From positions 7,438 through 71,437 of IMG/VR virus record IMGVR_UViG_3300020112_000969: DNA of 64,000 nucleotides; one strand, given 5' to 3'. This document shows positions 7,136-34,878 of the stretch, piece by piece. The stretch is from a virus. The position numbers and the translations under genes are program-made. Position 1 is the first letter of the stretch. Each line of letters begins with the position of its first letter. The notes beneath the pieces were generated by a model. The model was not told the DNA's origin and ran no database searches. It saw only the letters and a list, made by a program, of their open reading frames with translations.

Positions 7136-7195
7136 GTTATTCTCCTTTTAATCGTCGGAGGCTCCCATTGCGGGAGCCTCCTAATCTGTTTTGTC

Positions 7196-8212: not shown

Positions 8213-8233
8213 TTTCTTTTTCCTCCTTCTTGA

Positions 8234-8722
8234 TTAGTCCACGAAGATGACGTAGTAGGTGTAGCGGCCTGCGGGCTCGATAGCGATGCAGGAGCCGAGG
8301 GGCTTTGTGGAAGCAGCATCAAGCTTGCCGCCAGTGCCGATACCGACAGAGCCGCCAACGGCGGGAACGGTGCCGACAAAGCCCTTTGCGGTAACAGCGA
8401 AACGGTTAGCGCTGCGAGGAATATAGCAGCGGCAGTTCTTGCCAGCTTCGTTGACGAACTCGTCGAGATTCTTCTTGCGTTCGTCGTACATCACTTCGGG
8501 AGTAGCGACAACTGCGCAGTGAGCCTTGTTGCTGTTTGCGGTGGCGAGCTTGGCCTTCATGACCTCGCGCTCGCCGGAGACCATGCCGACGATTTCAACG
8601 ATGGTTCCGTTTTCAACAGCAATGGGTTTGTCCTGTGCATCAAAGACGCGGCAGGTAACGACAGCGGATCTGTCGTCAGTACCGGACATAGCGTCCGTGC
8701 GGATAACGGTATACATATCCAT
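8234..8722 (-). CDS. hypothetical head protein (decoration/accessory candidate)
   Basis: ORF track; 162 aa; between the scaffold-like ORF and the capsid gene. Confidence 0.3.
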   Translation of the reverse strand: MDMYTVIRTDAMSGTDDRSAVVTCRVFDAQDKPIAVENGTIVEIVGMVSGEREVMKAKLATANSNKAHCAVVATPEVMYDERKKNLDEFVNEAGKNCRCYIPRSANRFAVTAKGFVGTVPAVGGSVGIGTGGKLDAASTKPLGSCIAIEPAGRYTYYVIFVD

Positions 8723-8795
8723 AATGATTTCCTCCTAATTTGTTTTTGGGCAGTAAAAATCCCGCAGAGAACTCTGCGGGTTCTGCCATGGTGAT

Positions 8796-10415: not shown

Positions 10416-10442
10416 CGTCCTCTTCTGTGCGCATTGCGCATT

Positions 10443-10637
10443 TTATAGCGTCAGCATATCCGACTCGATATAGCTGACATCATTTAACGCGAAGCACTCA
10501 GACTCTCCTCTTGCAAACACATAAATACCAGCACCTTCGTCTTGTCCGACAAGGCACATACCGCCGCAGAGAAGCTTCTTCTTTGCTTCCTCGTTAAACA
10601 CATAAATAAAAGGCTTCATTGATTTCCCTTCTTTCAC
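10443..10637 (-). CDS. hypothetical small protein
   Basis: ORF track; 64 aa. Confidence 0.25.
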   Translation of the reverse strand: MKEGKSMKPFIYVFNEEAKKKLLCGGMCLVGQDEGAGIYVFARGESECFALNDVSYIESDMLTL

Positions 10638-12145
10638 GAAAGCTCTCTTGTCGCTTCCCCTGCTTCTGTCAGCTCGTCATCGCTTTTTGTCGGCGCTCCG
10701 GCGTCTCCGCTGGACGCAGCAGACTGCGTCGATGAACTCTTGAGCGGCATAAACTTCTCCTTAATCCCGAGCACATCGTCCTCAAGGAAGTTCATGCTAT
10801 CCAACTCCGCCTGCCCGAGTCCGACCGTTGCCGCGTACATAGATACCGTCGGCAAACCAAACTGCGCAGCCTTAATATAAAGGTCTGCCATTTCCTTGCG
10901 GTTATAGGCAGACACATCCAAAAATGTCACCTTGAAGTTTTTGCCGTATGTCGTGCTTCGAATGTATCTGTTCACGACGTCCTCAATGCTCTTCACAATT
11001 CCGAATGTCAGCGCCTGATCCGCCTTGATGGAAAGAAGCAGCGCGTTTGCGCTCGCCTTCGTGTTGTTAAACAAAAGCGAAGATACGCCGGCGGCAGAGA
11101 ATAAATTCTGCTCTGCCTCTGAGATCGTGTCAGTATCTCCTGTGTGAGATCTCTCAAAGCTGATCTTATCGATGCTCATCGGAGAAAGAACAGATCCGAT
11201 CTCTTCCGGAAGAACAGAGTCGAGATTTTGCCAGAACTCTTTTGCCTTTCCGAGATCCATCGCCCACGATCCGTCCTGAGCCATGGCAAGCTTCATTACA
11301 AGGATGGCGTAGTTTTCAAGCTCTGTCTTTGTGAGTTTCAGCGACCGGTAGTCCTCAATGTCGTACACCTCGCGAAGCAGACCTGCAAACGGAGGCATTG
11401 CGTAATCCAAAATATCGTTGTTGCACTTCACAGCGAACGATGTCGGGCAATCAAGCCCCTGATACTTCATAGTCGTGCGGTTCTTCTTGTAAAGCTCGTA
11501 CTTTACAGAGAACTCCTTCGGATAAAGCGGGAGGTACTCCTGATTGGCGTCGAAGTAGGAAAAGTCAAACGTCACATTTGCGACATTCCCCTCGATGCTC
11601 GATATCTCGCAGTGATCGAATGGGAGCTGCTGAATTGTGATGTTCTCTTCAGATACCCACATCGTCCCGTAAAAGGTATCTTCTCTCAGACATACTGTCA
11701 GAATTTTCGGGAACTGTGTCTTAATGCTCATTGCATTCATCGCATCAAGCACTTTCCTGTAATCATTTCCAACAATGTTCTTGCTCTTCTTTTTCGGTGC
11801 AACACCGCTCGGCGAAACGATGTAGCTCAGATCGGAAAGCGATGTAAAATACTGAATCAGTCTGCGGAAGTGCGAGCTCGCGCCATAAATATAAACAACC
11901 GCCTTGCGAAGTTCCTTGCGGTACTTGTATGGGTTCTCAAGGTATTTTGCGATATCGTCCTTCGTATACTTTGAAAATGTCGGGGACGATTGTTTCCCGT
12001 TCAGGTCTCGCAAAATGACCTTGCTCAAAACAGAAAAGTTTTTCGGGATATTGATTGCGCCGAGAAACTCGTCGCTGCTATGCGCAGTGACTGGTTTTGC
12101 TTGAGTGCCAAGCTCAGCATTTTTTCTTCCCATGAAGACCATCAC
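10634..12145 (-). CDS. portal protein candidate
   Basis: ORF track; 503 aa, immediately downstream of the large terminase. Confidence 0.55.
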   Translation of the reverse strand: MMVFMGRKNAELGTQAKPVTAHSSDEFLGAINIPKNFSVLSKVILRDLNGKQSSPTFSKYTKDDIAKYLENPYKYRKELRKAVVYIYGASSHFRRLIQYFTSLSDLSYIVSPSGVAPKKKSKNIVGNDYRKVLDAMNAMSIKTQFPKILTVCLREDTFYGTMWVSEENITIQQLPFDHCEISSIEGNVANVTFDFSYFDANQEYLPLYPKEFSVKYELYKKNRTTMKYQGLDCPTSFAVKCNNDILDYAMPPFAGLLREVYDIEDYRSLKLTKTELENYAILVMKLAMAQDGSWAMDLGKAKEFWQNLDSVLPEEIGSVLSPMSIDKISFERSHTGDTDTISEAEQNLFSAAGVSSLLFNNTKASANALLLSIKADQALTFGIVKSIEDVVNRYIRSTTYGKNFKVTFLDVSAYNRKEMADLYIKAAQFGLPTVSMYAATVGLGQAELDSMNFLEDDVLGIKEKFMPLKSSSTQSAASSGDAGAPTKSDDELTEAGEATRELS

Positions 12146-12154
12146 CTCCTATCT

Positions 12155-13918
12155 TTAATGATAAATTTTCGGAGCGCGGAAATGAAACTCGCGCTCTGCC
12201 TGCGCATTCAGCATACTTGACTGCCTCCTGCTCATTTTGTTTTCAATCTGTGTTGCCACATAGTAGTTGTAGGACAGCGAAGAATATCTATCCTTTCTCG
12301 CGCCGGCCTTCTCAAATACGCGAACCTTTCCGTTGTTCTCCTCATGCTCCAGCTTGATCAATTCGTCAATCAGAAGCGTTGTATGAACGTACGGTAGTTG
12401 TATGCGCATCTGCTCATCCGGAGTTAATGCGCTATAGCCCTTCAGATCGCTGAGCACCTCTTCTCCGTCATACTCGGAAACCAGAAGGCGGATACGACCG
12501 CTCTTAAACCCATCGCGTAATAAGAAAGCACAGTCCGAGTTGAACTGTGCGTTTGCCTTAACAGACCAAATTACCTTTGGTGCATCAATGCTCGAGCAGC
12601 GCTCAGCCATCGACTTATCGTTGATGCAGGAAAGTGCAGGATATACCTCTCCTATTTCCTGATCTACAATGTCCTTTGCAAGACAGTCATAAACTCCAAG
12701 ACCAATTCCGTTGGTATCAAGTACGATGTAATCGCAGTCGTACTCGTCAAAGAGTTTACGAATGACAAGCGACTGTTCTTCCGTGCGCAGCCCCTCGTTG
12801 GATGCGCCGTAAACGATATTACTCATATATCGTCCTGCCTTGGTCGGTGACATCTGGTTGATGAAAATTGCCGTTGCGTCGTTCTTATTTTTCTTGCTCG
12901 ACATCAACGCAATATCAGCAGACAGTATGCGTATCTCTCCGTTCTGCTTTGGCGGTATCTGCATCTCCTTGCATGATAACCTTGACGATAAATCGCTTGG
13001 CAGCATCGGGTATTTGATCTTTCTGTTTTTTGCAACTGCATCAAATTCAAAGAACGATCCGTCCGAAGCGCCGTACCAAAGCGCCTCGTATTCCATACAG
13101 AACTTTAGCTCATTAAAGTCAGTTTCAGACATTTCGTCACGAATGGTATCTTCGTCCAAAAGTCCTTCGCTGAGTGATAGCTGATACGGGAGACCGCACA
13201 CGAACTGCTTCCCTCCGTCCGCCATCATCATCCTGAAAGCGTCCTTACACTTCAAAAAGCTCCAGTGGTCTGTAAAATACGCAGAGCTTAAAAACATCGT
13301 CAAGTTCTTTTCCTTTGCGTATTCTTCTTTTCTCTCTGCCTTGCTCAGCTCGCTGTAGCGCGGCATTCTTCTCTGTGTAAGAAACTTCTTAAAGATAACG
13401 TCAATAACATCCTTCGGGATCAGTCGGAACTCATCCAAGAGAAGGACGTTCGCTCGGTTACCGCGCGCAGAGTCTCCTGATGTACATACCTTTATATAGC
13501 TTCCGTTATGGAACACGACCTGCGCGTTTGTGTTATTCAGCTTCGTTTGCTTGTCGTCTATTTCTGCTGCAAGCTCAGGAGATATCAGCCGAAGCTCAAG
13601 CACGATCTTTTCAAGCACCTGCATCGCCTGCCCTCGCGTGCCTGACGCGATTACAATCTTTGTGCCAGGGTATAAAATACATCGAACGCAGCAAAATACT
13701 GCGCTCAGAAATGTTTTTCCGATTCCTCGCGCACCGATGAAAACGACCGTTGTTGAAATCGTCATCATCGTAATGACAATGCGCTGGAATAGTCTCAGAT
13801 CAAGATGCAGGTAATCCTTGCAGAACCTTGCCGGGTTTGCCCTGTAGTACGCAGCCCACAGCGCAGCACCATTCCGTATCTTTTCAGCTCTCGTCATTTT
13901 CGTCTCCTCCGTAATCAT
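12155..13918 (-). CDS. terL: terminase large subunit
   Basis: Walker A VVFIGARGIGKTF near the N-terminus; size about 590 aa. Start placed at ATG 13918, preceded by RBS GAGGTG. Confidence 0.75.
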   Translation of the reverse strand: MITEETKMTRAEKIRNGAALWAAYYRANPARFCKDYLHLDLRLFQRIVITMMTISTTVVFIGARGIGKTFLSAVFCCVRCILYPGTKIVIASGTRGQAMQVLEKIVLELRLISPELAAEIDDKQTKLNNTNAQVVFHNGSYIKVCTSGDSARGNRANVLLLDEFRLIPKDVIDVIFKKFLTQRRMPRYSELSKAERKEEYAKEKNLTMFLSSAYFTDHWSFLKCKDAFRMMMADGGKQFVCGLPYQLSLSEGLLDEDTIRDEMSETDFNELKFCMEYEALWYGASDGSFFEFDAVAKNRKIKYPMLPSDLSSRLSCKEMQIPPKQNGEIRILSADIALMSSKKNKNDATAIFINQMSPTKAGRYMSNIVYGASNEGLRTEEQSLVIRKLFDEYDCDYIVLDTNGIGLGVYDCLAKDIVDQEIGEVYPALSCINDKSMAERCSSIDAPKVIWSVKANAQFNSDCAFLLRDGFKSGRIRLLVSEYDGEEVLSDLKGYSALTPDEQMRIQLPYVHTTLLIDELIKLEHEENNGKVRVFEKAGARKDRYSSLSYNYYVATQIENKMSRRQSSMLNAQAEREFHFRAPKIYH

Positions 13919-14942
13919 TGGAGAACACCTCGTTGAACAGAGCCTCGTCTTCTTCATCACCAAACTCCGGCTTTTCTACGCGGAGTCTTTCTATTTCTTT
14001 TTCGTACATCTTGCTGTAAGCCGTCTTGAGACCGAGCATTTTTGCTAAATGACCTTTGAACCATATCTCGATATACTTAACGATTCCGTCCACATCTTTC
14101 AGCTCCGGATCAATTTCCGGCAGCGGCCTCTCATTTTCCCACCTGCGTATCCATACTCCCAAAGGAGTAGTCTCAACACCATCTGCAAGCTCTTCCTTTT
14201 TCTGCGCCGGCTTCAGCGCAGCGCTTCCCAAAAGTGCGTTGAGTGCATTGACACTCTTATCCACGCTCTTTCCGGCCATTCTGTCTCGGTTGATATCAAG
14301 CTCAAGCGAGCAGATCTGTCTGAGAAGTGCCTTTGTTCCGATGTCAAGATCGTCCACGCTCTTCCCGTGCTTGCTGCTCTCTAACCAGTAGGAAAGTCTC
14401 TGCTCTAACTGCTGATACATGGACGGCGTATATCCGGCGCCCCAGAACGCAATGACATCTTCTCCGATTTCAGGAATATCCTCTTCCTGTATAGGCTGCT
14501 CTTGCACCGCCTGCTCTTCTTCCTTTTGCGGCTCCTCGTAAACAACAGCGCCGCCGGAGATATCTGCAAACTGCCAGAACGTCTTTCTTTCTCTAAGTGT
14601 GTCGTCATAACATTTACCGGCGTACTTCAGCGCATTGACCTTCATCATATATGCGGTCATCATCGTTCGCGTTGCGTTCTGCTTTTCAGCAACCTCAAAC
14701 AGCTTTTCATTCCAATACAGATCGAGCTTTCTGCACATCTGCATCACGGCAAGTCTTGCGCTCTTACTCTCGTCGAAGTACTCGTTATACATCGTGTCAA
14801 TGCATTCTCTGCAATACGGAATAAATCCTGTCCCCTTGTATAGGACAGCGTAGCTGATCGGGAAATACCCCTTCAGCCTCGTATATGCAGTTCCGCACCG
14901 TCTGCATACTGCGTGCATTGAGTTAACGTCAAATGTACTCAT
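13884..14942 (-). CDS. terminase small subunit candidate
   Basis: ORF track; 352 aa. Directly upstream of and overlapping terL; N-terminal CxxC...CxxC zinc ribbon; acidic C-terminus. Confidence 0.4.
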   Translation of the reverse strand: MSTFDVNSMHAVCRRCGTAYTRLKGYFPISYAVLYKGTGFIPYCRECIDTMYNEYFDESKSARLAVMQMCRKLDLYWNEKLFEVAEKQNATRTMMTAYMMKVNALKYAGKCYDDTLRERKTFWQFADISGGAVVYEEPQKEEEQAVQEQPIQEEDIPEIGEDVIAFWGAGYTPSMYQQLEQRLSYWLESSKHGKSVDDLDIGTKALLRQICSLELDINRDRMAGKSVDKSVNALNALLGSAALKPAQKKEELADGVETTPLGVWIRRWENERPLPEIDPELKDVDGIVKYIEIWFKGHLAKMLGLKTAYSKMYEKEIERLRVEKPEFGDEEDEALFNEVFSNDYGGDENDES

Positions 14943-15433
14943 TCTTCGTCAGCCTCCTCGTCTACCTCCATGTCATAACGAGGCTCAGGAGGGCGTATTT
15001 TGTATTCGGAAAGAGACTGTTCATAAAACTTAACCGCTCTTTTGATCCTTGAACCAAACCAAAACTTCGGGATCAGTCTCTCGTTGATATCAACAACGTC
15101 TCCTGTTTCCGGAAGCTTTGCCCATCTCTTCTTATAAACCATGTGTCCTATCGTGCCAAAGCCTCCGAAGGATACCTTTTCTCCTTTTCTCAGAGCTTTT
15201 TCTGCGGCGATCAAGAGTGCATCCAAAACGACCTCAACGTCCTTCCTTGTATAAATGACGTCCTTTTCGATCCTATCTGCTTTATAGTTATGGCTGACAC
15301 CATTCTCGTTAGAGATCGTGAACACCTCGCTTGGCACGTTAATATTTTTGCGCACATTTGCGCTGCGCAAAACCTCTGCCGCGCTTGCGGCCAAATCTCT
15401 CCTATCCATTCCTCTCATCCTCTTGTCCTGCAT
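14939..15433 (-). CDS. HU/IHF-family DNA-binding protein with acidic C-terminal extension
   Basis: GFGTIGHMVYKKRWAKLPETGDVVDINERLIPKF matches the HU arm pattern (GFGxF...R.GRNP.TGE...I.....P.F). Confidence 0.6.
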   Translation of the reverse strand: MQDKRMRGMDRRDLAASAAEVLRSANVRKNINVPSEVFTISNENGVSHNYKADRIEKDVIYTRKDVEVVLDALLIAAEKALRKGEKVSFGGFGTIGHMVYKKRWAKLPETGDVVDINERLIPKFWFGSRIKRAVKFYEQSLSEYKIRPPEPRYDMEVDEEADEE

Positions 15434-16410
15434 TAGTAGCAGAACTTATCCTTTGTCTCTCTCAGCTTTGACGGATCGAACTTGATGTAAAATTTCGATG
15501 TGACATCCGTGCTCTTGTGGTTTAACAATCTGGAAATATCCTCCAGCTCCATTCCGAGATTCTTCAAAATTGTCGCGCCGCTGTGTCTGAAATCATGCGG
15601 GTGAAGCGTCGGCACATCAATCATCGCACCGATGTCATTGCACCACTTATTCAGCGTCCCCTTTGTGATGCACTTTCCCTTCTCTCCCGCGAACACATAT
15701 CCTCCGTCGTCTATCCCGTTTTCCTCGCGATAGCGTTTTAGATCAGTCAAAGCGTCTTTTGTTTCATCGTTGAAAAACAGATCTACAAGATAGCCCTCTT
15801 TTTCAAGAACCTCTGTCACGATCTTTTCTTCAAAATCGATCTGCTCCCAACGTACGCTGCTCACCGCATTAACTCTCGCCATCGTGGAAAGAGAAAACAG
15901 TGCGTAGGTTCTCATTTGCAATGCCCTGTGCTTCTTTCCCGGCGTAGCTGCATTTCCCACCTGGTCTGAAAGAGTGCGGCGCATCTGAGCAACTTGTTCA
16001 AGACTCAGGTATGTCTGTGTCACAACATCTGTGTCCTTTTTGGGACGATCAATAAATTCCATCGGGTTGCTCTCAATCAGCTTCTTCTTTCTCAGAAACT
16101 TATAGAATGCAGCAATCGAGCTCATACGTCGCTTCATTCTTCGAGAGTTGTTCCCCTCTGACTTGCAATAATACAAAAACTCGGTGATTTCATCCTCACC
16201 GAGTTCAGTAACAGGGCGGTTGCCCTGATTGTCATAGATGAACAACCACCATTGCTGAAGGTCGTTCAGATATCCGTCAATCGTTCCTGCGCTCAATTCG
16301 CGCAGCGTCATATCGATCTTGTATTTGTTCCAAAGGCGCAGTGTCTCCGGATTGATTTTTTCCAGCTTCTGCGCATCGTAGAACCGAAGCGATTTGCTTT
16401 TTTCAGCCAT
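15433..16410 (-). CDS. tyrosine recombinase (Xer-like)
   Basis: C-terminal HPHDFRHSGATIL...LLNHKSTDVTSKFY gives the R/HxxR/Y catalytic motifs. Start at ATG 16410 (MAEKSK) with RBS AGGGGG. Confidence 0.7.
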   Translation of the reverse strand: MAEKSKSLRFYDAQKLEKINPETLRLWNKYKIDMTLRELSAGTIDGYLNDLQQWWLFIYDNQGNRPVTELGEDEITEFLYYCKSEGNNSRRMKRRMSSIAAFYKFLRKKKLIESNPMEFIDRPKKDTDVVTQTYLSLEQVAQMRRTLSDQVGNAATPGKKHRALQMRTYALFSLSTMARVNAVSSVRWEQIDFEEKIVTEVLEKEGYLVDLFFNDETKDALTDLKRYREENGIDDGGYVFAGEKGKCITKGTLNKWCNDIGAMIDVPTLHPHDFRHSGATILKNLGMELEDISRLLNHKSTDVTSKFYIKFDPSKLRETKDKFCY

Positions 16411-16430
16411 CGCACACTGCCCCCTTCTTC

Positions 16431-17732
16431 TTATTCTGACAGCGGAATATCGTAGTGGCAAATAATTCCTTTATCGTCACACACACAGACGATCTGTTCC
16501 TGCCGTCCTACAATTCTCTTGCTGACGCAGTAGTCATCCATACCAATAAAGCTTCCGCTCATCACGGCCTTTACGCCCTGTACGCTGTCCACCTTATTGT
16601 GGTGCAGGTGACCGGACAGTACGGCGTATACCTTTTTACCTACCATCGTCTGCAGCGTCTGCACCTTCGATGCGGAATCGTCGTAATCGCCATGTACGCC
16701 TGCATAAGTCTTTCCGCGCACGTCGATCGTATAGATCGTATCGTCAATTCTTTCTCCGGCGCCGATCACAACATTTTCAAATCCCTGCAATCTTGCTTTC
16801 AGATACCACTCGACCAGATCGTCAAGACGCTCTCTCGTTGTCACCATAGACTTGTCAGGGTTGAGTCTGCTGTGGTTCCCTGAAACGCTGACGTATTTCA
16901 CTACATTGAAATGCCTGCTGAGCTGCGCCAAGAACTCCGCAATCAGCTCAGACACGCCTTTGATCTGGTCGATAACAGCTTCCTTGTTTGTCACGGCAAT
17001 GCTGTAGTGTATGTTACCATGTATGCTGTCTCCGTTTTGGTAGACGATGCACTCATCGCTTCCATGCAGCTCTGCAATTTTAATCACGCGTCTCAGATAT
17101 CTGCTCATCATTTCTGCGCATATATCAGAGTTATATTTGTTCCAGTAGTTATCGACATTTGCACCGTAATGAATATCATTGAGCGAAACAAGTACGCTGC
17201 TTTCTCCGTTTGGTATATCCGTCTCTTCATATTCAAGGCGAGGAAGAGTACCGTATTTTACGGCGTTCTCCAAAATCTCGTTGAGTTCTTCTTCTCTTGC
17301 ACGATCTCGTATCACCTTGTTGTATGCGTTACGCTCATCGAAAAACTTCTGTCTCTCCTTCTGAAGCTCGATCTTCTTCTGCTCAAGCGCCGTAATCATA
17401 TCAACAATCTCAGGGTCGGCGCTTCCTGTATATCCGACAGCGGCGATTTCTCTTTCAGAGTCAAGAAGCTCTATCGTCTTGCATGATCCGTACATCATTC
17501 GTCTTGCGACATCTGTGCTGTATTCTTTTCCATAAACAAGAGGAGCAAGCTCGGCGTAATCATATTCTGCAAGTGTCTTGTCAACGAGCTTCCCCTCAAC
17601 AAGCCTTTTGTGATATTCGTAATCAGACTCGGACGGTTCGCGAATTAACGGGCTGCACTTCTTCCAGTTACACTCTTTCGTTTCGCCCATTCTTTTCACC
17701 GTCAATATACTTTCCGCTGCGCATCGCCGCAA
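16431..17732 (-). CDS. metallophosphoesterase (calcineurin-like) with N-terminal extension
   Basis: Motifs VSLNDIHYG, GDSIHGN, GNHS, GHLHH in the canonical order of metallophosphatases. Confidence 0.55.
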   Translation of the reverse strand: MRRCAAESILTVKRMGETKECNWKKCSPLIREPSESDYEYHKRLVEGKLVDKTLAEYDYAELAPLVYGKEYSTDVARRMMYGSCKTIELLDSEREIAAVGYTGSADPEIVDMITALEQKKIELQKERQKFFDERNAYNKVIRDRAREEELNEILENAVKYGTLPRLEYEETDIPNGESSVLVSLNDIHYGANVDNYWNKYNSDICAEMMSRYLRRVIKIAELHGSDECIVYQNGDSIHGNIHYSIAVTNKEAVIDQIKGVSELIAEFLAQLSRHFNVVKYVSVSGNHSRLNPDKSMVTTRERLDDLVEWYLKARLQGFENVVIGAGERIDDTIYTIDVRGKTYAGVHGDYDDSASKVQTLQTMVGKKVYAVLSGHLHHNKVDSVQGVKAVMSGSFIGMDDYCVSKRIVGRQEQIVCVCDDKGIICHYDIPLSE

Positions 17733-18002
17733 TAACTGCCATCGCTCTGCGCGCTTCCTCCATGTAGTATTTACCTCTTCCGGAGTTACCCTTCATCGTG
17801 CGAACGATATTTACATCAGGGTATTTCTTGCTGATAACATCCTTCTCGCGTCTTGTAATGCAAATCAAAAACAATCATCCTTTTCATCATTATTTGAGAA
17901 AAAGCAAAAATGCTATTCCCCCTTCATTATTAACAATACCTCAAGGCGGCTGCGAGGCGTTGCAGCCCAACGCCTCGTGCCAACTTTGATCTTGTATTTT
18001 GC

Positions 18003-18782
18003 TCAGAAAACGCAAACCATTTTCTGCACACGTTTTCTCTCAACGATGTTAACGTGCTGCTGCATCCACACTGTTCCGGCGCAATCCTTGCAGTATTTCA
18101 CATGGTTATCGCTCGAAGGGTGCTCCTTCTTCACGGTAATTCCGCAGTGCTTGCACACATAGTACGGTTCTCCGAGATACATCATGTACTGGTATCCGAG
18201 GTTGCGGAAGTCCGTCACGCGCACGGCGACATCCCCTCCGTCCTCCGCAAAGTCAACGCGGACATTGGTGTTGTCGATCTGCTTTGAGAAGGTAATCAGT
18301 CCGGCGTCTCGAAGCTGACTGTACATGGCGCACTGTCTCCGTATTGATGTCTTGATGTTTGCCATCCTCGCGATTTCTCCGTCCGGAATACTCACCCAGA
18401 AATTGGAGTCCTTATTCACTGCGTTTTGGAACTTGGCAAGGCACAGCAGGGTGAAGGCGAGTCTTCTCGCCTGCCTCCCTCCGACCTTCTCTATCGACTT
18501 CATTTCGCCGTCATAAACGTCAACGCCGTCCAGCATAACAAGCGGACAGTTCTTCCCTCTTTTCACTGCACGCTCCACGATAATGTCGATGCCGCCCTCC
18601 GTCCCGTTATAATCCGAAGAACGAAGGAACTCTTCAATGCACCGTGCGACCTCACGCTTTGTCTTTCCTTTTTGGTAGTAATACTTTGCAAGAAGAGTTG
18701 CCGTTTCCGTCGGGCTTCTTCCTACGGTCTTCTCGCGCAGCGTATCCTCCACCCATTCCTTTTCATTCAAAATCACATTCAT
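18003..18782 (-). CDS. hypothetical DNA-binding protein (wHTH-like segment, C-terminal CxxC..CxxC)
   Basis: ORF track; 259 aa; IARMANIKTSIRRQCAMYSQLRDAGLI helix-turn-helix-like segment; CKHCG/CKDC zinc ribbon. Confidence 0.3.
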   Translation of the reverse strand: MNVILNEKEWVEDTLREKTVGRSPTETATLLAKYYYQKGKTKREVARCIEEFLRSSDYNGTEGGIDIIVERAVKRGKNCPLVMLDGVDVYDGEMKSIEKVGGRQARRLAFTLLCLAKFQNAVNKDSNFWVSIPDGEIARMANIKTSIRRQCAMYSQLRDAGLITFSKQIDNTNVRVDFAEDGGDVAVRVTDFRNLGYQYMMYLGEPYYVCKHCGITVKKEHPSSDNHVKYCKDCAGTVWMQQHVNIVERKRVQKMVCVF

Positions 18783-21456
18783 CTGTATCCTCCGCGACCA
18801 CCGTCTTCACGGTGTATCGTTCACCGCCATATGTAAACTCACCCCCGTCGCATCTCGTCGGGAATGAGATTTTCCGTTCACAATTTTCAAGAAGGTTCTC
18901 AATCATCTGATCCGCGCACACACTCCACGCAAACGCCTTTGTTGCGCTTTTTGTATAGCACACATCCAGCACGACATCGCACATTACCTTCCTGTTTTGG
19001 CACACCTCGCTGCATCTGCGAATAAAGTCTGATCGCATTGCGCCCATTTCAACGCGCATAGTGTCTGTGTCAACCTTTTCATACTTCGCAAACATTGCAT
19101 AGGAGCGTACCTCGCGATTGTACTCCTCATATATTTCAGCAATCTTCTTTGCCTGCGACACGCTGTACTGTGTTCCGCTTTTCATCATCGAGTAATCGAA
19201 CTTAGTGTCCTCCGGCTTTCTCTCGCACCTTCCGTCAAACCGCTCTTCAAACCGTCTGCATATCTGGTTCATTACGCATTTCCCGTCTCCGACAGGAAGT
19301 CTTTTATCGTACCAGTGCAGGAACTCTTTTTGACGCTCCGTCAATTCTTCATACGGAAGTCTCTTCATCTCGCACACCGTCATTCCGAACTCGCGTAGTG
19401 CGTTCTTGTCTGTGCTGTTTCGGTATGTATTGAATTCTCTTGCAAGAGACGGATAAATATATCTCATGAAGTACGGCTTCTTCTCCGCAAGGATGGAGCG
19501 GTAAAACCGTTTCTTCTCTTCATCCTCAATCATGTTGACGCTGTGCCAGTCGTGCCACGATCTCGGCATCGGCTTACACACGATCCCCTTCGCCTTGTCG
19601 ATGGCGTTTTGCTGGAACAGTTGTCCGCACTGTATTCTGTAGGACAGCTCCTCGTATTCCTTTGAGTCCTTTTCATATCGTGAGCGAACCTCATACATCG
19701 ATGTGATGTAGTTCGTCGTCTTTCCAATATCATTGCCAAAACTATCGATGTTGGACTGGATGACATCCTCCTCTGTCACGACCTTCTTCTTTGCTTTTCT
19801 CTGTGCGCACACAAGCGCCGGCATCTCTTCGTGTCTTCTAAGGAGAACGCTGTTGTCCGTCAGCATCACAAGGTCTCCGTCAAAGTCCATTCCGTTCAGC
19901 GCAGCCATGGAGTTATCCCATGCGTTCATGACAGTGCAGGCATTCATATAACGGAACCACGTGTCAACCTCTTCCCCTCTTCGCACCTTCACCTTTCTCA
20001 CGTTGTTGTGGCACGACATCGGTGCGCGGAAGCAAACAAGCTTTTCCGCATCGCTCTCAGCCCAGTATCTGTTAAAGATCTCTCCGCGTCTAAGAAGACC
20101 GGTTACATCCATTCCGAACATACTCTGACAAAGCGCATACGGGTCTCCGGAAGCGATCGAGTAATTCCCATGCACATTCAGCACGCCGACCTTTGCCTCG
20201 TCGATCCTGTTTTTGATCATCTGCCGTATCTTCCCGTACACAAAAGGATCCTTCAGAATTTCAGGCCATATCATGATCGCCTTTGCAAAGTCGTTTTCCG
20301 TTTTTACTGCGTTGCTTTCAGTAAGCCCGGATCCTTTTAGAAACAGAACTGTTCTTCTCCAGTCATCACTTAGCACATCACTCATCTCGTTCATCGTAGG
20401 AGCGATGAGCTCTTCTATATCGTCGTCGTCCATGCCGAATGACTGGATGAACTGATAGTTCAGTCTTCTCTCATCCTCAAGCCTCTCTGGGCAGGTCTTT
20501 GCAACACCAAATGTGTAGTTGTTGCTTTTGCAACACTTTATGTACGCCTCGCAGCTTTCATAGCTATCCCAAAGCTTCAGCATACTTTCCGTCAGTACGA
20601 GCTGCACTTGTCGTATGTCAAGTACGTTTCCCCACACATCCTTTACCTCGAAGCTCTTTGCCTTTTCCTGCGCGAACTTCACGAAGTCGAAGGTAAATAC
20701 CATACCCTTTGTAAATGCACATCTCGTGTTTACGCCGCTTGTCACATAGCTAAGACCAAGCTCTCTGCTCCACCTTTCCGCAAGGTCTGGACGCATCATA
20801 CCGAACCCGTCTGAAGCGTCAAGCTTGATATCCGCATCCTTGCGATGCTCTACCATCGGCTCTTCTCTTCCGTCATCGTCCATATATATGATGTCGTCCT
20901 TGAATGCCGTTTCGCAGTCGTGTATTACGAGAATTCCGTCCGGCCATGATACAGGGATAGACGCGCTGCAGGTCAGTGCCTTATATGCTTCCAGCTTTGC
21001 CGGAACAAGCTCTTTGCTCATATCGCGTCCGTTATCTACGCGTGACGCAAGCGCATCATGCAGCCTGTCGCTGACAAACACGATCGTTGAGTTCTTGATA
21101 CCGCCGTTCGTCCCAAGAAGTCTTCTGTATGTTACGCCGTTGATGCTGAAGCCTCGAACAGCTCTGTGGTAATCCTTCTCCTTGTCGATGATCAGGCACA
21201 TATAGTCACTCTTAAACTGAATGGCATCAAGCTGCTCATACTTTGCGCGAAGCTCTCTTCTCTTCTGCAGGCTCTCTTCTTCGCTCCTCAGCTTCTTAAT
21301 GGAACGCTTCAACGCAAACGCTCTCTCGTCCGCATCCTCAACGCCGTTCAGCTCGTCTATCCATCGCAGCATTTGGCTGTCCGCAAGTGAGATAACTTCG
21401 TCATTTCGTCTCGCCTCTCGCAGCGGAAGTGTCATGTTCCATCTCGCCTTCCGCAA
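18763..21456 (-). CDS. large protein with DFDGD metal-binding motif (single-subunit RNA polymerase candidate, YonO-like)
   Basis: ORF track; 897 aa. Motif LNGMDFDGDLVM resembles the universally conserved NADFDGD / DxDGD Mg-binding loop of the double-psi beta-barrel in multisubunit RNAP beta-prime, YonO and cellular RdRPs. No helicase or polymerase A/B motifs seen. Confidence 0.4.
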   Translation of the reverse strand: MRKARWNMTLPLREARRNDEVISLADSQMLRWIDELNGVEDADERAFALKRSIKKLRSEEESLQKRRELRAKYEQLDAIQFKSDYMCLIIDKEKDYHRAVRGFSINGVTYRRLLGTNGGIKNSTIVFVSDRLHDALASRVDNGRDMSKELVPAKLEAYKALTCSASIPVSWPDGILVIHDCETAFKDDIIYMDDDGREEPMVEHRKDADIKLDASDGFGMMRPDLAERWSRELGLSYVTSGVNTRCAFTKGMVFTFDFVKFAQEKAKSFEVKDVWGNVLDIRQVQLVLTESMLKLWDSYESCEAYIKCCKSNNYTFGVAKTCPERLEDERRLNYQFIQSFGMDDDDIEELIAPTMNEMSDVLSDDWRRTVLFLKGSGLTESNAVKTENDFAKAIMIWPEILKDPFVYGKIRQMIKNRIDEAKVGVLNVHGNYSIASGDPYALCQSMFGMDVTGLLRRGEIFNRYWAESDAEKLVCFRAPMSCHNNVRKVKVRRGEEVDTWFRYMNACTVMNAWDNSMAALNGMDFDGDLVMLTDNSVLLRRHEEMPALVCAQRKAKKKVVTEEDVIQSNIDSFGNDIGKTTNYITSMYEVRSRYEKDSKEYEELSYRIQCGQLFQQNAIDKAKGIVCKPMPRSWHDWHSVNMIEDEEKKRFYRSILAEKKPYFMRYIYPSLAREFNTYRNSTDKNALREFGMTVCEMKRLPYEELTERQKEFLHWYDKRLPVGDGKCVMNQICRRFEERFDGRCERKPEDTKFDYSMMKSGTQYSVSQAKKIAEIYEEYNREVRSYAMFAKYEKVDTDTMRVEMGAMRSDFIRRCSEVCQNRKVMCDVVLDVCYTKSATKAFAWSVCADQMIENLLENCERKISFPTRCDGGEFTYGGERYTVKTVVAEDTDECDFE

Positions 21457-21545
21457 CCTCGAGGAGTGGATTTTATATATGTATCTCTGACAGGTCTTTT
21501 GTTTCGCCAGAGTACTCGCCTCGCTTTCGTACTGTACTGTTACTG

Positions 21546-21728
21546 TCAGTTAAATTGACCGACATACTCTTCCCACTCGGCACGATATGCCTCTATGCCA
21601 TCCTGCCAAAGTGCCTCATGCTCCGTATCTTCAACGGGGTCTCTATAATCGCATCCCCTGCATTCTTCTCCGCAGATATCTGCATAAATGCACGTTCCTC
21701 CGCACGAACTATTCGCCAACGCCAACAC
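21546..21728 (-). CDS. small Cys-rich protein
   Basis: ORF track; 60 aa; seven Cys. Confidence 0.25.
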   Translation of the reverse strand: MLALANSSCGGTCIYADICGEECRGCDYRDPVEDTEHEALWQDGIEAYRAEWEEYVGQFN

Positions 21729-22989
21729 CTCCTTCGCTTACTCGTTCTACCCAATCCTCCAAAAGCTCTCGCATTCTTCTGGACGGGATGTATATGTAGA
21801 TCTCTCCGCCGTCTCTTATCGCTCCACGCCATATCCACTGCAGCATTTCGGAAAGCGCCCATCCGTCCGCATCAACCTTAATTCCGCGCTTTGCAAAGAA
21901 CCCTGACACCTCAGGTGGGAAGAATCGGTTGACGAGATATGCAAGCACTGCACGTTCGCGATATTCATTTGTCGCTCGGATATTGCACGGGATAAACCCT
22001 TTTGCATATCCCTGCGGAGAGACCATTGGCTTTCCGTTTTCTCCAATGAACGACGTGAACAGAACGTCTGATGTGTGAGCGTCGTTTCGATTGCGAAGGA
22101 AGTTATACGCGTTCGATGCAAGCCTTTTCCCGATATCCGTCTTTGCATTTCTCTCATACCACCCCTTGCCAAGCGCGAACTTGTCCTCACCGATAAAGTT
22201 CATCTTCTTGTCGTAGCATATATGGATCTTCTCGCGAGCCTCAGGTATCACATATTTCAACGGCCTGTCTGTTACGCGGAACTCCTCAGGAGAATTTCCT
22301 TCCACATAGCGGTACTCGAACGGGATACCAAACATATCGAAGTAGTATCGCTGAAGCTGGCAGTGGAACATATAGGTCAAGATGTAGATATCATCAAATG
22401 CGTCGAATGCGATCTTCGGCATCATGCGAACGATACTCGTATCGTTGTAATACCACAGGCATCCTGCATCGCACATTTTCTTTCTCTCGTCCAACACACC
22501 GTAATAGAACCGCTCATCGTTCAGCCAAAACAAGCGACCGTCATCGTCTCTACCGCAATACTTTGTGTTGATCATCTTCGCGTCGTACGGCGATATGTCG
22601 TACTTAAATACAACGGAAGCGACCTCGTCCATCACCAGCGTATAGCCTCCGTCCGATATGAGCTGAACGGTCTCCTCGTCGAACTTCCCGAAAAGCGCGT
22701 GTGTGGTCGCTATGTTTTTCTTTTTGCGAAGCATATTCTTCAGACTAACCAGCTTGCTCAGCGGCTTATACTCGTTCTTCTTATTTTTCATCGCCTCCGG
22801 CGTGAGGAACTTTCTTGTCGTGCAGTTCTTTTTCACGCGCTCTATCTCGCTCAGATAAGGTGTGACGAACATATACCGCTTGTCGCTCTTATCTTCGTTA
22901 ATGAGCCGTATCATAGCGGTTGTCTTACCGAAACCCATCGGTGCGTCAACTACCTTTACCGGATTTCTTTCTTCCATAATTACCTCCAA
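21709..22989 (-). CDS. P-loop NTPase (putative helicase/ATPase)
   Basis: Walker A APMGFGKTT at residues 16-24; Walker B-like LVMDEV; TTHALF motif. Confidence 0.5.
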   Translation of the reverse strand: MEVIMEERNPVKVVDAPMGFGKTTAMIRLINEDKSDKRYMFVTPYLSEIERVKKNCTTRKFLTPEAMKNKKNEYKPLSKLVSLKNMLRKKKNIATTHALFGKFDEETVQLISDGGYTLVMDEVASVVFKYDISPYDAKMINTKYCGRDDDGRLFWLNDERFYYGVLDERKKMCDAGCLWYYNDTSIVRMMPKIAFDAFDDIYILTYMFHCQLQRYYFDMFGIPFEYRYVEGNSPEEFRVTDRPLKYVIPEAREKIHICYDKKMNFIGEDKFALGKGWYERNAKTDIGKRLASNAYNFLRNRNDAHTSDVLFTSFIGENGKPMVSPQGYAKGFIPCNIRATNEYRERAVLAYLVNRFFPPEVSGFFAKRGIKVDADGWALSEMLQWIWRGAIRDGGEIYIYIPSRRMRELLEDWVERVSEGGVGVGE

Positions 22990-23237
22990 ATTGATGGCAC
23001 TTTACTGTGTTAAAGTTTTTACTACGTTTTTCGCCGAAACTTCAGGGTTCTCTACTTGTTCCGGTGCTCTCTCTCCCCAATTCTTTGTTTCATAGACCGT
23101 TTTGAAAAAACCCTGCTGTACCAAGGCTTTCAAGGCACGAAAATCGCGTTTTACTATATTTGATGATCAAGAGACACCATGCCGACACGCCTTCAGCCCA
23201 GTGATACCAATGCTTACAGGCTACTAAGGCGTTTTTC

Positions 23238-23298
23238 AAAAAAAAAAAAAATGAGAACCGGCTCTGCGCGAATATCCTTCGCATAGAATCGGTTCTCT
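23238..23298 (-). terminator. rho-independent terminator downstream of integrase (minus strand)
   Basis: 8-bp stem GAGAACCG/CGGTTCTC with loop, followed on the minus strand by a run of 14 U. Confidence 0.5.
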
Positions 23299-23369
23299 TC
23301 TATTTCAAACTATATTAAATTAAAAATTCTCAGAGCCGCAGCAATAGCGGCGCCTCAGCAGAGCATCTA

Positions 23370-24419
23370 TTACATCGCCCTCGCGCTCTCATCCTCTCTT
23401 TCTGTCACAGAGCTGTCTACGAGGTAGTTGTGCGTCTTGCTGCCAAGGTTCAGATTACGATAGGCTTCCTCAATCTCTTCTCTTGTAATGCCGATGTAAT
23501 CCAGTGTCTGAGCAGCGGAGCTGTGTCCCATGGCTTTCTGAAGAAGCAGAAGCTTTCTCGGATCGTTGTTGCTCATCACCATCTGGTGATACGCCCATGT
23601 CTTACGAAGCGAGTGCGTGGAAAGCTTCATCGTCAAATCAAGCTCCTTCGCAAGCGAGCGGAGCATATGATCCACTCCCTGTCTCGATACAGGTTCGTTC
23701 TTATTGGAGCCTCTGTTGCTCTCAGAGCGGAACATATAGTCGCTCAGTTTCACGTTCTTCGTATTCTCCAGATACAGCGTCACAGCTTCAACGATAGCCG
23801 TATTGATTGTCAGATATCTGTTCTTGCGATGGGTTCTGGTGTTCTTCGTCTTCTGCTCTAAAACGGGAAAGCTGTCCTTGAATGTGTAGTTGTCATTGAT
23901 AAGATTACAGAAGCGAAGCACTCTCAAGTCGCTGATGCGAAGTCCAAGGTTTATACCAACGATAAAAAGCATATTGTCGCGGTAGCGACCGTTACGCTTC
24001 ATGTAATCAGATATGCGCTCGATTTCATCCATATCCTTGATAGGCTCAGCAGCGTGATCTACTGCAAGCTCCTGCGTAACAACTTCCTCAGACGGAGCAA
24101 TCAATCCAGACTTCAGCTTTCTGCATTCCTTCTGGATGGATCTCACGTCAATGTAGCTTTCTTTCTCTCCGCCGGCAAGGGAAGCTCCCGCTTCCATACT
24201 GCCGGACGAACGCTCTTCCGCAGCTTTCTTTTCGTACTCTTTTTCAGAATATATCTCCGTTCCTTTTACCAAGGATCTGCAGCCTGTGCCATTCGCACCT
24301 TTACTTGTCTGGCTGGTAACCTTTACCTCTTCAGCTCTCTTGTCTTGCCGAAGGAAAGCTCCCGCTTTCATGTTCTCTCCCGCTATTCCTTTTCTGTTAA
24401 AATCCAGAGTGATGACCAT
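23370..24419 (-). CDS. int: tyrosine integrase
   Basis: C-terminal HSLRKTWAYHQ...LLQKAMGHSSAAQTLDYIGI (HxxR...H...Y). Start at ATG 24419 with RBS AAAGGAG. Confidence 0.75.
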   Translation of the reverse strand: MVITLDFNRKGIAGENMKAGAFLRQDKRAEEVKVTSQTSKGANGTGCRSLVKGTEIYSEKEYEKKAAEERSSGSMEAGASLAGGEKESYIDVRSIQKECRKLKSGLIAPSEEVVTQELAVDHAAEPIKDMDEIERISDYMKRNGRYRDNMLFIVGINLGLRISDLRVLRFCNLINDNYTFKDSFPVLEQKTKNTRTHRKNRYLTINTAIVEAVTLYLENTKNVKLSDYMFRSESNRGSNKNEPVSRQGVDHMLRSLAKELDLTMKLSTHSLRKTWAYHQMVMSNNDPRKLLLLQKAMGHSSAAQTLDYIGITREEIEEAYRNLNLGSKTHNYLVDSSVTEREDESARAM

Positions 24420-24854
24420 ATCGTATCTCCTTTGCTGTACGCTTCGCCGTAAGACGATCAATGACAGAAGAACCATCGCAGTTCATATATCTTCTCGCCC
24501 AGTATTCTTTCTCTGGCTGCTTATCTATACCAACCAGAAGAGGAACCGCATCTTGAACTATCTATCATTCCACTGTATCAGATGCAACCTAAAAGCAACC
24601 TCAAAGCAGCTAACATTGTTTCAGCGTACCATATATCTGTTATGTATCCGAAGCATCTCTATTTGCTCTTTTCAGAACTGTCTCCCTTCCCAATGTAAGA
24701 GCTGAGACGCCGCACTTATCGTTCCAATGTTTATATTTACATTATAACAGATTTTGTGCGAATTGCAAGTATTATTTGCAATTTCTTTGTTATTTTTTCA
24801 CAAATTCTTCAAAAACAATATCTTTCTTTTTGACAGCGGTTATTGCCGATATAT

Positions 24855-24870
24855 TGTTGCATCTGCAACA
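24855..24870. promoter_or_regulatory. operator-like perfect palindrome TGTTGCA-tc-TGCAACA
   Basis: Seen in sequence within the int-proximal non-coding region. A second inverted repeat ATTGCAA...TTGCAAT lies at about 24762-24782. Confidence 0.3.
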
Positions 24871-25301
24871 TATTCCATAAAAAGCAAATAGCCTTTTCAA
24901 CCTGGTTTCTTCCGCGTCCTGAAGGATCACTGAATGCAGGTCAAAAAGGCTTAACCGTTGAAAGCGTTGGTATGAGTGGATTTTTTAATGATTGCTGGGA
25001 AGGAAAGCTCCTATCCATTTTTGTCGCGCTGTCTGCCCCTGTAATATGGTAAATACCCCCCTATTTGACAATGTGGCAAAAAAGCAAATAGACCGACCGC
25101 CGGACAGCCGCCGCCGGACAGCCGCCGGAACATTTTTTACTTTTTCCGCCTGTTCTATAAGATATTTTTCTTTACAAGCTTTTACCAATGTGGTACAATA
25201 TTGATATGGAGATAGGGCGCGGCTTCCCCTTTTCCACAAAAAGACAGCCGCACCCCTCTGCAAATTTACAGCCGACGGGCTATAATCGTTTGGAGTATAC
25301 C

Positions 25302-26234
25302 ATGCACACAATGATTTGTCAAATTGTCAGCTTTAACGCAGACGGCACGACCGAGGGCAAGCGTCTGACGCTCTGCAACTCCCTTGCAGACGCTTACAGA
25401 AATGAGAGCAGAACAACGCCCCGCGGCTCTTTCCGCGTCTATCCGTTTTGCGACCGCTCAGATGGTGACAGCATTATGGACTTTGCAGAGTATGCCGCAC
25501 GCCAAAAAGCGGCTTGGCTTGTCTGTAATGACAGCGCTGGCGCGGACGCTGTAAATAAGCCCGCTTACGACTATGAAGATATGCGGCAAGACGCGGCGGG
25601 GTATGTATTGGCTTGCGATAACGCCGCCGATATGCGGGATCTTTTACTTGCCGCCCTGCGCGGCATAGACAGGGAGCGCCGCGCAATGTACCCCGCGACT
25701 GGTCGAGACGCGAGTTATAACCCCGCATGGGCGGCTTGCAATGTATGCGACCGCATAGCAAGCGCGACTTTTCCCGCGCTCAATAAGCTTGTTTCCGACT
25801 GTCTGCCCCGCTTGACTGACGCGGAGCAGGAAGCCGTGGAGATGTTTGCAAGCGGTACGACAAAACAGGATATAGCCGACCTTGCTGGCATTTCCCGCCG
25901 CTCTGTTCGCGGTCGTATAGACAACGGACTATTTACCCTCTTGCGGTATATGGACGCTCACAAAGACGCTAACGCGGCATTTGCAAGCGCGGGGATAAGT
26001 AAAGCCGACCGCCTTGCCGCTCTTGCCGTACTTGCAGAAAAAAACAAAGATATCCCACGCGACCGCGCCGCCGCCTATGCCGCCGCCGCAAGAGAAGCCG
26101 CCGCCGCTCCCGCTCCCGCCCCTGTTCCCGCTCCCGCTCCCGCCCCTGTTCCCGCTCCCGCTCCCGCCGCCGACCATGCCGACCGCCCCGCCTTGCTTCG
26201 CATAACATGGGCAACGGCTATCCCGCTTAACTGA
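25302..26234 (+). CDS. sigma-70 region-4 / LuxR-type HTH protein with Ala-Pro repeat tail
   Basis: LTDAEQEAVEMFASGTTKQDIADLAGISRRSVRGRIDNGLFTL matches the sigma-70 region 4 pattern. C-terminal APAPAPVP repeats are encoded by a 21-bp tandem DNA repeat. Local GC is markedly higher than the flanks. Confidence 0.45.
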   Translation: MHTMICQIVSFNADGTTEGKRLTLCNSLADAYRNESRTTPRGSFRVYPFCDRSDGDSIMDFAEYAARQKAAWLVCNDSAGADAVNKPAYDYEDMRQDAAGYVLACDNAADMRDLLLAALRGIDRERRAMYPATGRDASYNPAWAACNVCDRIASATFPALNKLVSDCLPRLTDAEQEAVEMFASGTTKQDIADLAGISRRSVRGRIDNGLFTLLRYMDAHKDANAAFASAGISKADRLAALAVLAEKNKDIPRDRAAAYAAAAREAAAAPAPAPVPAPAPAPVPAPAPAADHADRPALLRITWATAIPLN

Positions 26235-31678: not shown

Positions 31679-31754
31679 GCTCCCGTAGCTCAGTTGGCAG
31701 AGCGCGGTCTTTGTAAGTCCGGCGTCGGCGGTTCAAATCCGTCCGGGAGCTCCA
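31679..31754 (+). tRNA. tRNA-Thr (anticodon UGU)
   Basis: Manual fold: acceptor GCTCCCG/CGGGAGC, D arm GCTC-AGTTGGCA-GAGC, anticodon loop tTTGTAa, T arm GGCGG-TTCAAAT-CCGTC, encoded CCA. One U-U mismatch in the anticodon stem. Confidence 0.6.
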
Positions 31755-31984
31755 CTGAAAGGATGATATTCACATGGACGAAGAAAGCAACAAGTTCAAA
31801 GAAATGACAGAGCGCGAAGCAATAGAACAGTGCGAACACGAAATCTATGCATTGGCGTTTGATTTAATGAATGCGCACGGGAACTATGCAGGCAAAGTTG
31901 CTCTCACGAGCATTTTGGATAGTTTGGAAGAAAACGGGTATTTCATTTAGACATCATGAGTGTCTCGAAGAGGTTTGATTAACT

Positions 31985-32494: not shown

Positions 32495-32514
32495 AATTTA
32501 CATGAAAGGATGGT

Positions 32515-33159: not shown

Positions 33160-33170
33160 TCGGTGATGTT

Positions 33171-33470: not shown

Positions 33471-33496
33471 TATTCAAAATTTAAGGAGAAAACGAA

Positions 33497-34135: not shown

Positions 34136-34253
34136 GCATCAAGATAACGACAATCGCTGCGATGCGAAAACCTTGAAGAATGAGCCTTGGTAATTGGGCA
34201 CGCCAAGTTAAATAAGTGCTTATAAAAGACTGTATCGGTTACAACGGCCGATA

Positions 34254-34688: not shown

Positions 34689-34800
34689 ATTTGCCATAGT
34701 CTCTATGGCTCCTTTCACCCATAGCTGTCGGTGGAATTTGCGGCAGCAGCGGTACAGCTAACGTACATATGGCGGCCTTGCCGGTTCCTTGGCCGCCTAC

Positions 34801-34875: not shown

Positions 34876-34878
34876 CAC

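Follow-up and report, generated by a model that had tools for sequence, protein, structure and literature searches.

YonO of phage SPbeta, the only member of its family to have been studied, is a strict DNA-dependent RNA polymerase (RNAP) that works processively and is essential for the phage, since 37 SPbeta late genes are silent without it, and one start site was placed upstream of yonK (Forrest et al. 2017, PMC5467207). The promoter sequence and the factor requirement of YonO were left open by the authors (PMC5467207), and our literature search on YonO turned up no newer mechanistic paper. According to a 2024 paper, the solved single-chain RNAPs with two double-psi beta-barrels (DPBBs) are only QDE-1, crAss gp66 and the P23-45 enzymes, and the YonO family has no structure in the PDB. 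Here we analyse a stretch of 64,000 nucleotides (hereafter the window) from the IMG/VR virus record IMGVR_UViG_3300020112_000969 (positions 7,438 to 71,437), in which an open reading frame (ORF) of the minus strand very probably encodes a YonO-family single-chain DNA-dependent RNAP of an SPbeta-like gut Firmicute phage, acting in late transcription by a mechanism that we propose below. The features at the centre of this reading are the following:

18763..21510, minus strand: YonO-family RNAP gene (ORF list, PF05183, YonO BLASTP, structural model and Foldseek)
20587..20934, minus strand: predicted first (beta-like) DPBB, about aa 175-290 (alignments, QDE-1 spacing and strand pattern of the model)
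19852..20184, minus strand: predicted second (beta-prime-like) DPBB, about aa 425-535 (invariant columns and QDE-1 residue correspondence)
19864-19899, minus strand: catalytic loop LNGMDFDGDLVM (translation)
18003..18782, minus strand: conserved 259-aa partner protein (20-nt overlap with the polymerase gene)
17953..17977, minus strand: GC-rich hairpin after the partner gene, with a 10-bp stem and a 5-nt loop (from the sequence; no T-run in the window)
17915..17945, minus strand: conserved element of about 31 bp, CTTGAGGTATTGTTAATAATGAAGGGGGAAT (fixed offset in relatives; unique in the window)

The original prediction, made from the sequence, had proposed an 897-aa protein with a DFDGD motif as a candidate single-subunit, YonO-like RNAP of the DPBB type, and this identification is upheld by the agreement of the PF05183 match, the homology to YonO, eight catalytic residues and the fold. 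The six-frame ORF list gives an ORF of 897 aa at 18763..21456 on the minus strand, with a TTG start, and translation of the catalytic loop confirms the motif. DFDGD is more than a chance pentapeptide, because the whole protein matches PF05183 and SPbeta YonO. The sole Pfam match is PF05183, the RNA-dependent RNA polymerase (RdRP) family of QDE-1 and RDR (66 bits, the gathering score being 23.8; E-value 3.7e-18, aa 94-605), a family recorded for most relatives too, and pairwise BLASTP with SPbeta YonO gives an E-value of 5e-34, with DFDGD aligned to the DNDGD of YonO. With tblastn, matches were found in 40 of 50,697 phage records: full-length ones in Clostridium phage c-st (39% identity), five Enterocloster phages (37%) and Bacillus phage BUCT082 (28%), and matches of 27% over aa 101-588 (E-value 1e-26) for SPbeta YonO and its close relatives. 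In a six-sequence alignment YonO can be aligned along the whole polymerase, with deletions in the C-terminal third. A sequence search of the PDB yielded no relative, the Pfam family RNA_pol_Rpb1 does not match the protein, and no match to the T7-type RNAPs (Pol A family) was obtained in Pfam, in the PDB sequence search or in the fold search.

Eight residues are invariant in the two-barrel RNAPs (Ruprich-Robert and Thuriaux, PMC2919709), and their equivalents in QDE-1 are D709, R738, K743, R962, P964, D1007, D1009 and D1011 (PMC2919709). All eight are present here, as D216, R245, K250, R477, P479, D524, D526 and D528, and are invariant in alignments of 6 and of 40 sequences, the latter including YonO. 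The first barrel carries D216-G217, R245 and K250-G251 (codons within 20707-20811), with the spacing between D216, R245 and K250 (29+5) identical to that of D709, R738 and K743 in QDE-1, so that a further DPBB with conserved basic residues, which had been suggested as a check of the prediction, is indeed found. The second barrel holds the R-x-P motif R477-A-P479 (20020-20028), corresponding to R962/P964 of QDE-1 and R446/P448 of Rpb1, and the Mg-binding triad D524/D526/D528. The R-x-P motif lies 47 residues before D524, the corresponding distance in QDE-1 being 45. The equivalent Asp triad of YonO is essential for catalysis (PMC5467207).

The AlphaFold2 model of the polymerase, built from 35 homologues, has a mean predicted local distance difference test score (pLDDT) of 85.7 and a predicted template modelling (TM) score (pTM) of 0.79. 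A Foldseek search of the PDB gave 26 matches with E-values of 1e-3 or lower, every one a two-barrel RNAP; neither the absence of a DPBB nor a match to another fold was encountered, and a search of a viral model library agrees with this result. The top matches are RDR2 of maize and Arabidopsis and QDE-1 (E-values 1.4e-16 to 7e-13, TM score about 0.46 over 840-920 columns), the best single one being RDR2 7w82 (1.4e-16), with QDE-1 at about 1e-14. These enzymes share with the window polymerase the D/R/K spacing of the first barrel and the order of the barrels in one chain, but they are only about 13-15% identical to it, act mainly on RNA templates in eukaryotic silencing, carry other accessory domains and have no phage late-operon context. 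They are followed by gp64 of phage P32 and gp62 of phage P74, which are P23-45-type enzymes (8f72, 8f5m), and then by gp66 of phi14:2, a crAss-like phage (6vr4). These are phage DNA-dependent RNAPs with the same catalytic architecture, differing in size and in having early or virion roles, and are matched with E-values of 2.5e-6 to 1.5e-4 and TM scores of 0.23-0.25. Multisubunit beta-prime, Rpb1 and A190 chains appear only at E-values above 0.1 and TM scores below 0.1, and the fold search of the model gave no PolD-like matches.

The true start of the polymerase lies probably upstream of the TTG. The frame is open 5' of this codon as far as a TAA at 21552-21550, and the in-frame residues upstream, LAKQKTCQRYIYKIHSSR, coincide at 16 of 20 positions with the N-termini of relatives, which begin MFIISKQLTCQKYIYKIHSSRLRK. 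The upstream stretch (21457-21552, minus strand) contains no ATG, GTG or TTG, and a CTG stands in frame at 21510, with GAGG 8 nt upstream. Because the upstream in-frame residues match the N-termini of relatives, we consider this non-canonical CTG as the probable start, which would give a protein of about 915 aa. The public gene call of the same protein begins at an ATG at 21435 (890 aa), and those of the polymerases of relatives pick many different internal starts (885-927 aa).

The polymerase is a new member of a known, very abundant and unstudied family. The idea that such enzymes are known from few phages does not hold, as more than 4,900 database proteins (E-value of 1e-5 or lower) and at least 532 IMG/VR loci are related to it. 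The nearest other database proteins are only about 62% identical, and a profile search from six divergent phage homologues led to the same clade of about 60% identity again. The window phage belongs to a very abundant lineage of gut phages with genomes of about 100-125 kb, whose closest isolates are Clostridium phage c-st and the Enterocloster phages. The label 'RNA-dependent RNA polymerase' is wrongly given to many relatives in the databases, among them those of PMBT24 (OQ326496), TR-TP1/2 (PQ571309/10) and Perkons (MT325768), because the name of the Pfam family was copied; others are split into fragments by introns.

In relatives, tblastn shows the polymerase gene to be interrupted after aa ~524-532 and, once, at aa 619/620, so that the intron sites are exactly the DFDGD codons and the invariant D620; this fits homing into an indispensable catalytic site. 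The interrupted loci are L010 (3909-4902), L013 (~1570-1830), L014 (4068-4345 and 4622-4921) and c-st (L002, ~9617-9935), and the Enterocloster phages (H4-H8), with their multi-piece tblastn matches, conform to this pattern. Both L014 insertions match group I introns over the full length (46.5 and 32.7 bits, E-values 1.7e-10 and 2.4e-6), called in E-value mode since the Rfam scores of the polymerase insertions lie below the gathering threshold. In L010 the upstream exon stops after ALNGMD and is followed by an insertion of 990 nt that codes for a homing endonuclease of the HNH type. These introns account for the assignment of the polymerase to three PHROGs families of 'unknown function' (full-length; aa 2-526; aa 548-885) and for the fragment annotations of c-st. 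The window gene is uninterrupted. Further group I introns occur in late genes (L013 8221-8496 and L014 11498-11791, 82 and 74 bits), and a RAGATH-18 RNA (64 bits) lies beside the HU gene of phage c-st (L002 13911-13971).

YonO, at 839 aa, has a CxxC...CxxC zinc ribbon at its end and lacks a partner gene. The window enzyme, from another host lineage (gut Clostridia-type phages), is longer (897 to ~915 aa), its C-terminal helical region having about 130 additional residues and its C-terminus no cysteines, and is accompanied by a separate partner that combines a winged helix with a zinc ribbon. The two enzymes are alike in being single chains with two barrels, the eight catalytic residues and 27% identity over aa 101-588. 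The same form of polymerase plus partner is found in c-st (CST179/178 and CST177), where the similarity to YonO had already been noted by the depositors, in Enterocloster phages PMBT24 and CB473P1-like, and in BUCT082, at the full-length identities given above (37-39% for c-st and Enterocloster, 28% for BUCT082); these homologues differ from the window gene in that several carry introns and appear in the records as separate ORFs, or bear the mistaken name RNA-dependent RNA polymerase.

The partner is composed of an N-terminal helical domain, a winged helix, a C4 zinc ribbon with four invariant cysteines (C210, C213, C231 and C234) and a long C-terminal helix, in a model with a pLDDT of 93.7 and a pTM of 0.86. 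Of the 96 loci with enough sequence, 92 have its gene directly behind that of the polymerase, in most cases with the frames overlapping. Of the other four, two come from phages that lack a partner, and in two the partner has diverged too far to be picked up by tblastn. Profile searches detect a partner homologue after the polymerase in c-st, PMBT24, BUCT082 and TR-TP1 (E-values 3e-35, 5e-18, 2e-23 and 2e-3), the c-st protein, CST177, bearing the depositors' annotation 'YonO C-ter'. No partner gene is present in SPbeta and Perkons, with polymerases of 839 and 857 aa. The partner family counts more than 1,100 close members and, at 50% identity, 1,461 clusters; both the best 120 and the best 150 relatives are stand-alone proteins, and the best 120 close relatives are unnamed and belong to no Pfam family specific to them, two giving unrelated Pfam matches (GIY-YIG and PF12647). 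Several members of ~375-383 aa (P0246, P0300, P0322, P0329 and others) have a C-terminal extension of about 120 aa with GIY-YIG (PF01541), which is probably a homing endonuclease joined to the partner gene's 3' end by read-through or fusion.

The ribbon signature of the partner, C-x2-C...SN-x2-KYC-x2-C, also ends the YonO and Perkons polymerases, whereas the window polymerase has a Cys-less stretch at this position and those of BUCT082, TR-TP1 and PMBT24 likewise lack a Cys ribbon there. The C-termini of the BUCT082 partner and of YonO are 40% identical over 45 aa (pairwise E-value 2e-7, short segments). We considered whether the partner could be the detached C-terminal domain of YonO, and rejected this, since YonO spans the whole 897-aa protein and only the terminal ribbon signature is common. 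Archaeal TFE/TFIIE-alpha offers a functional analogy for the partner only, as unrelated winged helices score as well or better.

Downstream of the partner gene, most relatives have a GC-rich hairpin between A-runs and T-runs after the stop codon, resembling a terminator. With a perfect-stem finder, 18 of the 51 intergenic sequences that bear the motif show a hairpin 2-12 nt upstream of the conserved element. The stems in relatives share the sequence CGTTG...CAACG, which we do not read beyond a terminator because shared ancestry could explain its conservation. About 51 of the 68 distinct intergenic sequences contain the element itself, with the consensus TTTGATGrGGTGCTTTAATGAAGGGAATATA, at 47-73 nt past the partner stop, the remaining spacer being variable. 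The window copy, which includes TAATGAAGGG, scores 18.7 and is the sole strong match in the 64 kb, a score attained anywhere in 2 of 50 shuffles, and in 876 kb of relatives all 67 matches (67/67) fall at the same site and strand. The element is probably a late promoter for the phage polymerase, a binding site of the partner, or both.

A related core is present in SPbeta, in the spacer of the mapped YonO start site (TTATGARGG). The published P_YonO primer-extension primers map to L003 (SPbeta) 8910-8933 and ~9127-9153; between them lies TCATTTATGAGGGTGCGAGG, and TCATTTATGAAGGTAAAGAC lies 158 nt upstream. The pattern WTWATGARGG occurs only twice on 13.4 kb of the SPbeta coding strand, both times in the yonN-yonK spacer, where the TCATTTATGARGG copies lie at L003 8881-8900 and 9039-9058, and two or more matches were obtained in 22 of 2000 shuffles. 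Scanning SPbeta, BUCT082, Perkons and TR-TP1 with the full element matrix gave no match, only the 10-nt core being in common. In BUCT082, classed as Spbetavirus, yonO is replaced by the two-gene type (924 aa + 278 aa; L004 1716-6870 compared with SPbeta L003 5608-8127), and the yonN-yonK spacer is near-identical to that of SPbeta, with both TCATTTATGARGG copies kept. With this natural swap of modules, the compatibility of promoters could be tested. The swap also brings an unrelated 515-aa upstream gene, for which a comparison with YonV-like proteins was negative.

GC and AT skews indicate that the window is transcribed leftward from 1 to about 25 kb and rightward in the remainder. The leftward part around the polymerase gene contains the following features:

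24741..24768, minus strand: best coding-strand sigma-70-type match, TTGCAA-16-TATAAT with an upstream TG (consensus scan, pattern match only)
23370-24476, minus strand: Tyr recombinase/integrase
21709..22989, minus strand: P-loop protein resembling YonV, directly upstream of the polymerase gene (SPbeta YonV, 40% identity, E-value 5e-92; phrog_2467)
17668..17874, minus strand: small conserved 68-aa ORF placed like yonK of SPbeta, the gene that comes first after the element (tblastn conservation in relatives)
16431..17732, minus strand: YonJ-like metallophosphoesterase/exonuclease, first large gene of the late block (phrog_284, E-value 5.6e-57; Metallophos_2; tblastn YonJ, E-value 1e-16)
15433-16461, minus strand: second Tyr recombinase
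14939-15433, minus strand: HU/IHF-like protein (PHROGs; NCBIfam IHF/HU similarity)
13884-14942, minus strand: phrog_3314 protein in the YonG position (PHROGs; synteny)
12155-13963, minus strand: terminase large subunit (PHROGs; synteny)
10634-12145, minus strand: portal (PHROGs; synteny with YonD Pfam matches)

Genes for virion proteins follow beyond the portal on the same strand. The gene order is that of the SPbeta late module, with YonV upstream of the polymerase and HU, YonJ, the YonG-position gene, terminase and portal downstream, and the same order is found in a 60%-identical relative on a 120-kb contig, in which Pfam recognises YonV_C, RdRP, YonJ_CC, Bac_DNA_binding, YonG_N/C, terminase and YonD_N; YonV_C is the Pfam match of the relatives' homologue of the YonV-like protein. 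Except for the HU/IHF resemblance, no NCBIfam model matches these proteins. The 68-aa ORF was also compared with YonK, but a relationship is not detectable (E-value 0.47). The original prediction had rightly placed the polymerase next to the packaging genes, terminase and portal lying on the same strand about 5 kb downstream. Its two other statements on the context fared less well: no clearly host gene is present within the window that would mark a prophage, and the supposed scarcity of host-type promoters carries no weight as an argument, because the 19 sigma-70-like matches in 5001-25000 are about as many as in shuffles (21.2 +/- 3.8).

Tyrosine-recombinase genes number three in the window, at 15433-16461 (minus), 23370-24476 (minus) and 62683-63648 (plus), the first lying inside the late operon, where the YonJ-like gene and the HU-like gene flank it, as is the case in the 120-kb relatives (L007) too. 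On the plus strand, the first gene of the rightward block (25188-26234) has a sub-threshold Pfam match to sigma-70 region 4 (E-value 4.8e-4) and matches phrog_1740, 'RNA polymerase sigma factor', with an E-value of 1.3e-4, so its product may be a phage sigma-like regulator. The same strand carries five clustered tRNA genes at 31679-34952 (Rfam tRNA, 47-70 bits), ThyX and serine hydroxymethyltransferase at 35654-36568 and 55465-56655, both parts of the thymidylate cycle, and a 379-aa reverse transcriptase at 42440-43579 (Pfam RVT_1, E-value 1.5e-19), which could derive from a diversity-generating retroelement, a retron or a group II intron. A class-V aminotransferase is encoded at 59319-60467.

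In the mechanism that we propose, host RNAP would first read the leftward block formed by the integrase, YonV-like, polymerase and partner genes, with the sigma-70-like site at 24768-24741, upstream of this block, as its candidate entry point. The phage polymerase would then read the late block of the same strand as one unit, as YonO does in SPbeta, this block comprising the small ORF, the YonJ-like nuclease, HU, terminase, portal and the virion genes. Catalysis would involve D524/D526/D528, the Mg triad in the second barrel, and also R477/P479 and, from the first barrel, D216, R245 and K250. The polymerase is envisaged to work with the translationally coupled 259-aa partner and to initiate at the element of about 31 bp at 17945-17915. 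A two-component enzyme is a possibility that we put forward tentatively, in which the partner would be a promoter-specificity or DNA-opening factor (sigma- or TFE-like) directing the polymerase to the late promoter of about 31 bp, and YonO would have fused the ribbon module only.

It seems rather unlikely, but deserves consideration, that the element is instead a host sigma-A or activator-dependent promoter, with the partner acting on host RNAP as an activator or repressor of late genes and the polymerase starting elsewhere or without a factor. The TTGATG of the element, its best-conserved part, is like a -35 box and some copies have TGnTATAAT or GATAAT at a suitable distance, yet only 9 of the 51 copies satisfy sigma-70 criteria, in registers that are not consistent, and the window copy is missed by the scanner; furthermore, the conserved positions cover what would be the spacer and the start site (T11, G12, ATGAAGG), and the same core occurs in the SPbeta spacer, downstream of which genes are silent without YonO. 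Winged helices such as those of CRP/FNR, LexA and HrcA are typical of regulators of host RNAP, and no fusion of polymerase and partner was found among the best 150 representatives; against this stand the strict linkage of the partner gene to that of the polymerase and their translational coupling. We regard as very improbable that the protein is an RNA-dependent enzyme copying or amplifying phage or host RNAs. Such a role would agree with the best Pfam and structural matches being cellular RdRPs (QDE-1, RDR2) and with the annotation of the PMBT24, TR-TP1 and Perkons relatives, but these GenBank names copy the Pfam label, YonO strongly prefers DNA templates and is needed for late-gene transcription (PMC5467207), QDE-1 too uses DNA templates (PDB titles), and the gene heads the late operon of a double-stranded DNA phage with SPbeta synteny. 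There is equally little reason to favour a two-barrel polymerase that is active but serves another purpose, for example replication priming or the synthesis of structural or regulatory non-coding RNA, while host RNAP reads the late genes: the YonV-like P-loop and metallophosphoesterase neighbours could be read as a DNA-metabolism module, and the DNA polymerase PolD has a two-barrel core as well (PMC10770324), but YonV and YonJ flank yonO in SPbeta as well, where the late role was demonstrated genetically and by RNA-seq, and PolD is not among the fold matches.

Several points weigh against our own reading. The family membership, fold, catalytic residues and synteny of the polymerase are shown by the analysis itself, whereas its DNA template and late-gene role are carried over from a YonO of 27% identity, and its cooperation with the partner and initiation at 17945-17915 are suggested by comparative genomics. 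The two barrels are placed on the basis of fold matches, strand pattern and residue mapping, so their limits are predicted ones. The partner is tied to the polymerase by genomic context, with the missing fusions just mentioned, and its ribbon kinship with the YonO C-terminus is only suggestive, because the zinc-ribbon profile of the clade is not significant on YonO (E-value 4) or on Perkons (0.06-0.5). As for the element, its matrix was trained on the very sites that were scored, kinship among the phages could account for part of its conservation, the window copy is among the weaker ones (18.7, compared with up to 42), and part of it, TTGATG, resembles a -35 box. The likeness to the SPbeta core extends over about 10 nt in a pattern defined post hoc, and the SPbeta start was located from primer positions, not to the nucleotide.

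YonO-type enzymes are the smallest known relatives of the cellular RNAPs and have been used to reason about an ancestral single-chain RNAP. The enzyme type was already known, and what is new here is the adjoining partner, predicted to bind DNA, and the conserved candidate promoter downstream. The window makes the question of how YonO enzymes initiate testable, as it provides a candidate factor (259 aa), a candidate promoter (17945-17915) and a comparison with the SPbeta start region. If the two-component reading is true, the partner and the element would be the first initiation factor and the first promoter for the YonO branch of the two-barrel RNAPs.

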